Shown: piece after piece, positions 42,629 to 43,692 of the stretch
Position numbering within the stretch: position 1 is the stretch's first letter
How the letters are laid out: each line of letters begins with the position of its first letter
Assembly: GCF_058153355.1 (NCBI RefSeq)
Contig: NZ_CM177019.1
DNA length: 64,000 nt
Direction: 5' to 3' (one strand)
Program-made: the position numbers and the translations under genes
The notes under the pieces: model-generated
Seen by the model: only the letters and a program-made list of their open reading frames with translations
Database searches by the model: none
Told to the model about the DNA's origin: nothing

Positions 42629-43525
42629 TTATACAAAAAGTGACAAAAAAGATCGGGTTTGATCACAGTCAGGGATCCCGGCACGCCCACCGGGACGCGT
42701 GCATTTTAACGCCGCCACACCGCTGGCAAAGCGGACGGAATCCGCTAAATCTCCACCTGTTGCCAGCGCCACCGCCAATGCGCCGTGAAAAACATCGCCC
42801 GCACCGGTAGTATCTACCACATCAACTTTGAAAGCTGGCTGATGCTGTCGCCCGCCATTCTCCAGCCAGTCACAGCCTGCACTGCCCTGAGTAACATAGA
42901 CATGTCCATTTGTGAGCGTTTGTGCCTGTTTTAGGGCACTCGCCATCTCTTTCACGCCCGTTAGCCGCGCCAGACCCGGTTCTGAAAAAGCAGCATGATC
43001 GCTTAACGCCACCAGCTCACTGATATCCTGCGGCGTAATATCACCGTCCAGCACGGTCATCACGCCCACCTGCCGCGCCAGAGTGAAGGCTTTTTTTGCG
43101 CCGTCGTGCCAGCGTACATCTGCCAGCACCACGTCCCACTGAGAGAAATCAATTTCCTCCAACCACTCTGCGTCAGGCAGCAGGTCCGGGCTGGGATAGT
43201 TAATGATGATTCGCTCGCCTTTGGCATCCACCATGATGGCGGATTGCGAAGATTTCGCCTGGTTATACCGCTTGGTGTAACGGGTGTTAACGCCCCAGGA
43301 TTCCAGCTCTGCCAGCAGGCTGTTTCCCGTGTCGTCGTCACCGACGCGACCAATAAAATCGACCTGCGCACCTAGTCTGGCCGCCGCAACTGCTGCTGTA
43401 GCCGCTGGCCCGCCGCCGACTTCCGTATAATTTTTCGCCACGTATTTACCGCTCTCCGTCGGCAATCCTTCCACGTAATAGATGCGATCCATCACGGTAA
43501 TTCCTACACAAGCAACACGAATCAT
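42629..43525 (-). CDS. yihV: PfkB-family sugar kinase (6-deoxy-6-sulfofructose kinase)
   Basis: 298 aa; ribokinase-like GG and DTTGAGD motifs. Confidence 0.88.
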   Translation of the reverse strand: MIRVACVGITVMDRIYYVEGLPTESGKYVAKNYTEVGGGPAATAAVAAARLGAQVDFIGRVGDDDTGNSLLAELESWGVNTRYTKRYNQAKSSQSAIMVDAKGERIIINYPSPDLLPDAEWLEEIDFSQWDVVLADVRWHDGAKKAFTLARQVGVMTVLDGDITPQDISELVALSDHAAFSEPGLARLTGVKEMASALKQAQTLTNGHVYVTQGSAGCDWLENGGRQHQPAFKVDVVDTTGAGDVFHGALAVALATGGDLADSVRFASGVAALKCTRPGGRAGIPDCDQTRSFLSLFV

Positions 43526-43692
43526 GGTCATTCCTTAAGCATTTTGGGATGCGTTCATTTTAATTTCATCAATTGTTTAAAAAGTGACGGCTGTCAATTT
43601 TTTGACGATAAATTACAAATACGATCAAAAACAGACAAGCAAGACATGTCATAAATGACAAAAAGTGACATCACTGTATTCAGGAGAGGGTT

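Follow-up and report, generated by a model that had tools for sequence, protein, structure and literature searches.

The sulfoquinovose locus

The window, that is, the whole 64-kb stretch of DNA analysed, carries the Escherichia coli sulfoquinovose (yih, sulfo-EMP) cluster, as judged from the annotation of matching genomes. The genes yihU, yihT and yihS lie on the plus strand from position 43693, and yihV and csqR (yihW) on the minus strand. The divergent spacer between yihV and yihU has a length of 161 bp. The coordinates of genes and candidate regulatory features are collected in Table 1.

Table 1. Genes and candidate regulatory features of the yihUTS/yihV/yihW region (window coordinates)
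Feature	Position	Strand	Description	Basis
csqR (yihW)	41810..42595	-	DeoR-family repressor, 261 aa, ATG at 42595	translation; csqR annotation in matching E. coli genomes
Probable -10 hexamer of yihW promoter	42628..42633	-	TATAAA	sequence compared with published start (PMC5816610)
yihV	42629..43531	-	sulfofructose kinase	ORF and annotation
Site 1	42635..42645	+	AAAAAGTGACA; adjoins -10 hexamer of yihW promoter on its upstream side, about -13 to -23	exact match
CRP-like site	42658..42673	.	TTTGATCACAGTCAGG; upstream of yihW promoter, about 42 bp from start	CRP core 7/10
Near-invariant spacer block	43556..43637	.	about 80 bp	column conservation, 58 unique orthologous spacers
24-bp palindrome	43579..43602	.	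AAAAAGTGAC-GGCT-GTCAATTTTT	consensus AAAAANTGAC-N4-GTCANTTTTT
Site 2	43579..43588	+	left arm of palindrome	
Relaxed copy b	43593..43602	-	AAAAATTGAC; right arm of palindrome	
YihW ChIP-exo interval	43606..43646	.	41 bp	converted coordinates
Relaxed copy d	43627..43637	+	AAAAACAGACA; over yihU start P4 (43630/43631)	pattern search
Direct repeat	43656..43670	+	TGACA-AAAAG-TGACA; in yihU leader, over starts P2/P3	
Site 3	43660..43669	+	spacer and second half of direct repeat	
AAAAANWGAC copies in regulatory DNA	42635, 43579, 43593, 43627, 43660	- for 43593, + for 43627		
yihU	43693..44589	+	sulfolactaldehyde reductase, first gene of yihUTS	ORF and annotation

The DeoR-family repressor CsqR has two established binding regions, the yihU/yihV spacer and the DNA upstream of yihW. 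The evidence is from gSELEX and EMSA (Shimada et al. 2019 Microbiology 165:78, as cited in PMC8006165, PMC8249747, PMC12608037), with EMSA also in PMC8006165 and PMC12608037. The same citing papers describe the binding as cooperative and as released by sulfoquinovose, sulfoquinovosyl glycerol and sulforhamnose. Polymeric binding of CsqR has been reported (PMC8006165), ChIP-exo also reports YihW binding in the yih region (PMC8464067), and CRP binds both regions in vitro (PMC5816610). The regulatory relationship and the bound regions are already known, and the present work refines known regulation rather than introducing a new system. A YihW logo exists as an image (Supplementary Figure 4 of PMC8464067). 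No base-level CsqR motif or CsqR box was found in the literature texts searched, which represent Shimada 2019 through papers citing it, and no paper with AAAGTGAC together with yihV was found in the searched literature.

The CsqR protein scan yielded 67 loci, and 57-58 Enterobacterales loci retain the arrangement of yihU and yihV-yihW. One fragment among the loci (L055, NZ_ABFU01000106.1, 885 bp), labelled Bacillus coahuilensis m4-4, encodes CsqR residues 52-261 with 100% identity to the window, and is almost certainly an E. coli contamination in a Bacillus assembly.

The genes yihR, yihQ, yihP, yihO and ompL, which form the rest of the long cassette, are absent directly downstream of yihS (window positions 46750-50100 onward). 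Here yihS is followed by the Mu-like phage genes mom and com, a Gin-type recombinase and tail-fibre assembly genes, and this region is covered to at least 80% in only eight of 5426 E. coli genomes. The region has the appearance of one end of a Mu-like prophage, whose insertion just past yihS would have split yihSTUVW from the uptake and hydrolysis genes. In the best-matching strain, E. coli WL297, an extra TauE/SafE sulfite-exporter gene is situated between yihR and yihQ (locus L069, 20131-21006), where K-12 has only a 198-bp gap. The layout of WL297 is a third form of the cassette besides the long and short forms of PMC12608037. The yihV allele of the window (42560-43720) is also unusual. Only five genomes match it at 99% or more, and K-12 is 93.7% identical; within the yihU/yihV spacer alone, identity to K-12 is 97%. 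These values point to a mosaic or recombinant locus around a strongly conserved regulatory core.

Distribution of the motif

The decamer AAAAAGTGAC was found by pattern search at the three positions given in the preliminary description, 42635-42644 (site 1), 43579-43588 (site 2) and 43660-43669 (site 3). All three matches are on the plus strand, and exact search of the 64-kb window gives none further. The ORFs and the annotation bear out the gene context as well: the csqR ATG is 40-49 bp downstream of site 1, which falls within the last four codons of yihV, and sites 2 and 3 lie in the yihV/yihU divergent spacer. Dinucleotide shuffles of the window give 0.15 expected copies, and none of 100 shuffles contains three or more. 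When the AT-rich regulatory DNA alone (161 + 80 bp) is shuffled, the mean is 0.0014, and none of 5000 shuffles reaches three. Chance is excluded as a source of three copies inside 1.04 kb. Markov models of order 1-4, trained on the remainder of the window, predict about 11-17 copies per 4.64-Mb (K-12-sized) genome, and thus the decamer is not genome-unique.

In 63 orthologous loci (534 kb), the decamer occurs 46 times at the position of site 2 and only four times at that of site 3. The position of site 1 accounts for 36 copies among the full-length loci; three shorter loci contain four more copies, which were not binned by position. Elsewhere in the 63 loci the decamer occurs at a single orthologous coding position, in nine loci. 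The longest words in common between the yihW promoter and the yihU/yihV spacer are ACAAAAAGTGACA (13 nt), AAAAAGTGAC itself and TGACAAAAA. The next class of words common to both CsqR-bound regions is TTTGATC, located at CRP-like sites.

The unit conserved in 58 orthologous loci is not the decamer itself. It is an A-run followed by (T/A)GACA, roughly AAAAA-N-(T/A)GACA. The GAC(A) core is conserved at 95% or more in every copy (50-64 orthologues), and the A-run is variable in copies e and f. The relaxed pattern AAAAANWGAC has six matches in the 64 kb (1.27 expected), five of them within about 240 bp of yih regulatory DNA, a number equalled by none of 5000 composition-matched local shuffles. The motif had been described as present in three copies; by the relaxed pattern there are at least five. 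Over 57 orthologous loci, with a median of four copies per locus, the two regulatory regions show a 455-fold higher density of the pattern compared with the remaining 478 kb. In strain WL297, no perfect match to it was observed in the other intergenic regions of the long yih cassette.

Candidate sites in the divergent spacer

Site 2 and relaxed copy b together form the 24-bp palindrome, which recurs in 56 of 58 orthologous spacers with no more than one mismatch. Its arms are invariant, and its four central nucleotides are free, occurring in at least 14 different forms. Relative to the major yihV start (43556-43558; published at -25/-27, PMC5816610), the palindrome extends from approximately -21 to -46. 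Sites 2 and 3 had both been placed within local palindromes. The local palindromes do occur there, but their conservation is unequal: gtgacggctgtca at site 2 is kept across orthologues, tgtcataaatgaca within Escherichia only, and gtgacatcac at site 3 is broken already in K-12, where it reads GTGACATAAC.

At site 3 the conserved structure is a direct repeat. Site 3 comprises its spacer and second half, and the weaker TGACA copy e lies 10 bp upstream. The pattern WGACA-N5-WGACA is observed in 50 of 58 orthologous spacers with a freely variable N5, and the exact decamer is retained in only four of the 58. Both (T)GACA words are islands of conservation within a variable stretch. Its assignment to the yihU leader follows from Enterobacter-type spacers, where it directly adjoins the ribosome-binding site. 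Published yihU transcription starts are at -15, -25, -35, -62/-63 and -82/-92 (PMC5816610). Window-wide, TGACA-N5-TGACA with at most one mismatch is not enriched (five matches against 3.6 expected), and the exact copy at 43656 is the only relevant one among these matches.

Besides the start and -10 region of yihV, the near-invariant block contains the palindrome, ATAAATTACAAATACGATC and copy d, whose positions are each 90-100% conserved across orthologues. Since the block is conserved as a whole, conservation alone cannot tell an operator from promoter or CRP elements. The YihW ChIP-exo interval covers the segment ATAAATTACAAATACGATC (43608-43626), which shows 93-100% invariance among 58 species and is kept in Aeromonadales (Dongshaea). 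It could be the yihU -10/start region, a weak CRP half-site, or a part of the operator.

The ChIP-exo data for YihW have one dominant peak with a signal/noise of 168 at NC_000913.2 4071641-4071681 (PMC8464067 supplementary file 5). Its coordinates were shifted by +1977 and transferred to the window through the K-12 locus in a gap-free alignment. This shift is consistent with where the start codons of glpA, ssuE and ansP lie in K-12, and with the yihV start from PMC5816610. The interval overlaps none of the three exact decamers and contains relaxed copy d as its only copy; it lies between sites 2 and 3, with its centre about 2 bp off their midpoint. Seven minor YihW peaks (yafO, ssuE, ansP, glpA, rpsP, yhcC and rplC/rpsJ) have no good match to the motif within ±40 bp. 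The second-strongest peak, with a signal/noise of 13.7, borders on AAAAAACGAACT, which is located 12-17 bp upstream of glpA (locus L074, NC_000913.3 2352480-2352785). This sequence, an A-run with GAAC, is only loosely similar to the motif and looks like a GlpR-type half-site; the peak may reflect cross-recognition among DeoR-family paralogues.

Candidate site within the yihV gene

Site 1 is conserved as A[A/T]AAAGTGACA, with GACA present in 100% of 64 sequences. The yihW transcription start is published at -27/-28 from the ATG (PMC5816610). The TATAAA hexamer is kept across orthologues, and the yihV stop codon (42629-42631) is inside it; the decamer of site 1 occupies -13 to -22. The position of TTTGATCACAGTCAGG fits the class II CRP site published at -41.5 of the yihW promoter (PMC5816610). 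In 55 species, identity at third codon positions of yihV is 0.51 for codons -60 to -17, 0.84 for the last 16 codons, and 0.95-1.0 over site 1. The synonymous positions are frozen at site 1, and thus selection acts on the DNA and not on the protein. The yihW promoter, with its -10 hexamer, site 1 and CRP site, is contained in the last 13 or so codons of yihV, stop codon included (42629-42672). In effect, regulatory DNA dictates the C-terminal tail of YihV (..LSLFV).

Candidate CsqR recognition element

The three decamers are probably the best-matching E. coli copies of the element recognized by CsqR. Their statistics, positions, arrangement and conservation are direct observations. Binding at the level of regions and release by the sugars are taken from the literature, and we infer the assignment of the motif to CsqR, including the contact of CsqR with these particular bases. 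The TTTGATC class of common words fits CRP, the other known binder of both regions, which leaves the A-run/TGACA class for CsqR. All five copies are in the yihW promoter or the yihU/yihV spacer, that is, at the promoters of CsqR-repressed genes adjoining the regulator gene. With the transcription starts from PMC5816610, their positions (the -10/-35 spacer, the -35 region, the start site and the leader) suit a repressor. The palindrome and the direct repeat, both with free centres, fit a dimeric or oligomeric helix-turn-helix protein, and fixed half-sites around free centres are typical of a protein-binding site. The preliminary suggestion of a YihW operator is partly supported, in that copies are present in both published CsqR-bound regions and their GAC(A) is conserved, but its 10-mer is not the conserved unit.

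The regulator of the short (Nissle-type) E. coli cassette is 72% identical to CsqR overall and has an identical helix-turn-helix. In the short-cassette DNA, CATAAAGTGACA is retained at the promoter of this regulator, and AAAAACAGACG and several copies of TGACA, some of them flipped, are also present. This retention fits the reported cross-binding, in which CsqR and the short-cassette regulator each bind the other's DNA (PMC12608037). The more distant relatives of CsqR considered were those of Dongshaea marina (68% identity) and of two metagenome-derived genomes, and the motif is retained alongside regulators of 68-72% identity. However, the regulatory block is conserved together with the genes even in Aeromonadales, so this is not an independent test of the motif following the regulator.

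One could suppose that the copies are CRP half-sites or weak CRP palindromes, read by CRP rather than by CsqR. Indeed, TGTCA and TGACA are each one base off the CRP half-sites TGTGA and TCACA, and AAAAGTGAC resembles the CRP half-site AAATGTGAT. The 161-bp spacer has three 7/10 matches to the CRP core, against 3.3 per kb window-wide: AGTGACGGCTGTCAAT (centre 43590.5), TGTCAATTTTTTGACG (43599.5) and TGTCATAAATGACAAA (43654.5), and site 2 is within one of them. However, no 16-mer scoring at least 7/10 contains site 1 or site 3, the one at 43647-43662 touching just the first three bases of site 3, and the CRP site of the yihW promoter at about -41.5 (PMC5816610) is the separate element TTTGATCACAGTCAGG. 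The C after GA is conserved in all copies, yet it would fall in the unconstrained N6 of a CRP site; within the would-be N6 of the palindrome, 43588 (C) and 43592-43593 (TG) are 85-100% conserved. The palindrome centre at 43590.5 is approximately -33 from the yihV start (PMC5816610), a non-standard position for activation by CRP. We consider a reading by CRP quite unlikely. The prospects are just as slim for placing the true CsqR operator in the central near-invariant segment 43606-43646, ATAAATTACAAATACGATCAAAAACAGACA, with the flanking decamers being auxiliary or serving another factor or promoter function. The strongest in vivo YihW signal maps to this segment, which is the most conserved part of the spacer. 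On the other hand, the CsqR-bound region upstream of yihW shares with it only the A-run/GACA word and the TTTGATC heptamer, and the segment itself contains relaxed copy d. Moreover, a single called pair of ChIP-exo borders may under-represent a large cooperative complex of the kind reported as polymeric binding (PMC8006165).

The remaining alternative dispenses with a dedicated operator and explains the copies by promoter architecture (UP-like A-runs and -35-like TTGACA), together with coding constraint on the YihV C-terminus at site 1. TTGACA is the -35 consensus, copy b reads AAAAATTGACA, the copies overlap mapped promoters (PMC5816610), and site 1 is coding sequence. This alternative is highly improbable. 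Coding constraint is no explanation for frozen synonymous positions, and free-centred arrangements such as the palindrome and the 10-bp direct repeat do not belong to promoter architecture. The direct repeat is next to the ribosome-binding site in many species, where any possible promoter would be upstream of it. In addition, a simple sigma-70 consensus scan of 42500-43800 found no promoter, and the promoter positions used here therefore rest on the published starts.

Two further possibilities were considered and rejected. A phased 10-bp array over the whole spacer (units at 43597, 43607, 43617 and 43627) has a lag-10 autocorrelation of z = 0.6. An RNA-level reading was discarded, as no Rfam family was found in 42300-43900, and sites 1 and 2 are upstream of promoters of genes on the opposite strand.

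Comparison with known systems

The published CsqR regions of E. coli K-12 coincide with the present ones in the regulator, both DNA regions, the repressor logic and the releasing sugars. The published CsqR texts give regions, whereas bases, namely A-run plus (T/A)GACA elements, are proposed here. The DeoR repressor of E. coli binds three separated copies of the 16-bp palindrome TGTTAGAA·TTCTAACA as an oligomer, with looping, whereas GlpR uses tandem operators. Both resemble the CsqR system in protein family, in several operator copies at or around promoters, in half-sites that end in ...ACA (TAACA and GAACA, GACA here), and in cooperative oligomeric binding. However, the half-site sequence differs, and the 10-bp autocorrelation is not significant here. 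As in DeoR, one candidate site is about 1 kb away from the others, which would allow looping.

The DeoR-type repressor SugR of Corynebacterium glutamicum has motifs A and B in the divergent spacer of ptsI and cg2118 (PMC2222622). The similarities are a pair of sites within a divergent spacer, overlapping both promoters or located downstream of them, A/C-rich words ending in AACA or GGACA, and release of the repressor by a sugar derivative (PMC2222622). However, the SugR motif is described as a 21-bp non-palindromic sequence (PMC2222622), there is one clear palindrome here, and the regulators are distant relatives. Compared with the CRP site TGTGA-N6-TCACA, the spacer words TGTCA-N6-TGAC(A/G) and AGTGA-N6-TCAAT match at 7/10. 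The differences are a symmetric swap, G to C and C to G, in both half-sites, and conservation of the would-be N6; sites 1 and 3 are not CRP-like.

Possible mechanism of regulation

The proposed mechanism starts from the places of the five copies. One is in the -10/-35 spacer of the yihW promoter, two make up the 24-bp palindrome, which covers the -35 region of yihV, and one is over a yihU start. The fifth, site 3, is paired with copy e as the direct repeat of the leader. With no inducer present, CsqR dimers or oligomers would fill the copies cooperatively and block RNA polymerase at three promoters, those of yihW, yihV and yihUTS. Binding of sulfoquinovose, sulfoquinovosyl glycerol or sulforhamnose to the C-terminal domain of CsqR would then release the repressor. 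A more elaborate, and rather unlikely, version has three nodes of repression: the palindrome, the direct repeat and the copy in the yihV codons some 0.95-1.03 kb away. Here, oligomers of CsqR would connect the nodes, either through looping or through spreading, like DeoR, and the TGTCA-N6-TGACA words would be deliberate one-mismatch look-alikes of CRP sites for competition between CsqR and CRP.

The overall picture of the regulation of the pathway is unchanged. The addition is a base-level proposal for what CsqR reads, namely (T/A)GACA preceded by an A-run, in a palindromic arrangement and in a 10-bp direct repeat, with the yihW promoter and a candidate operator written into the last codons of yihV. 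It may be of use for the design of operator mutants, for sulfoquinovose biosensors and for regulon prediction in other Enterobacterales.
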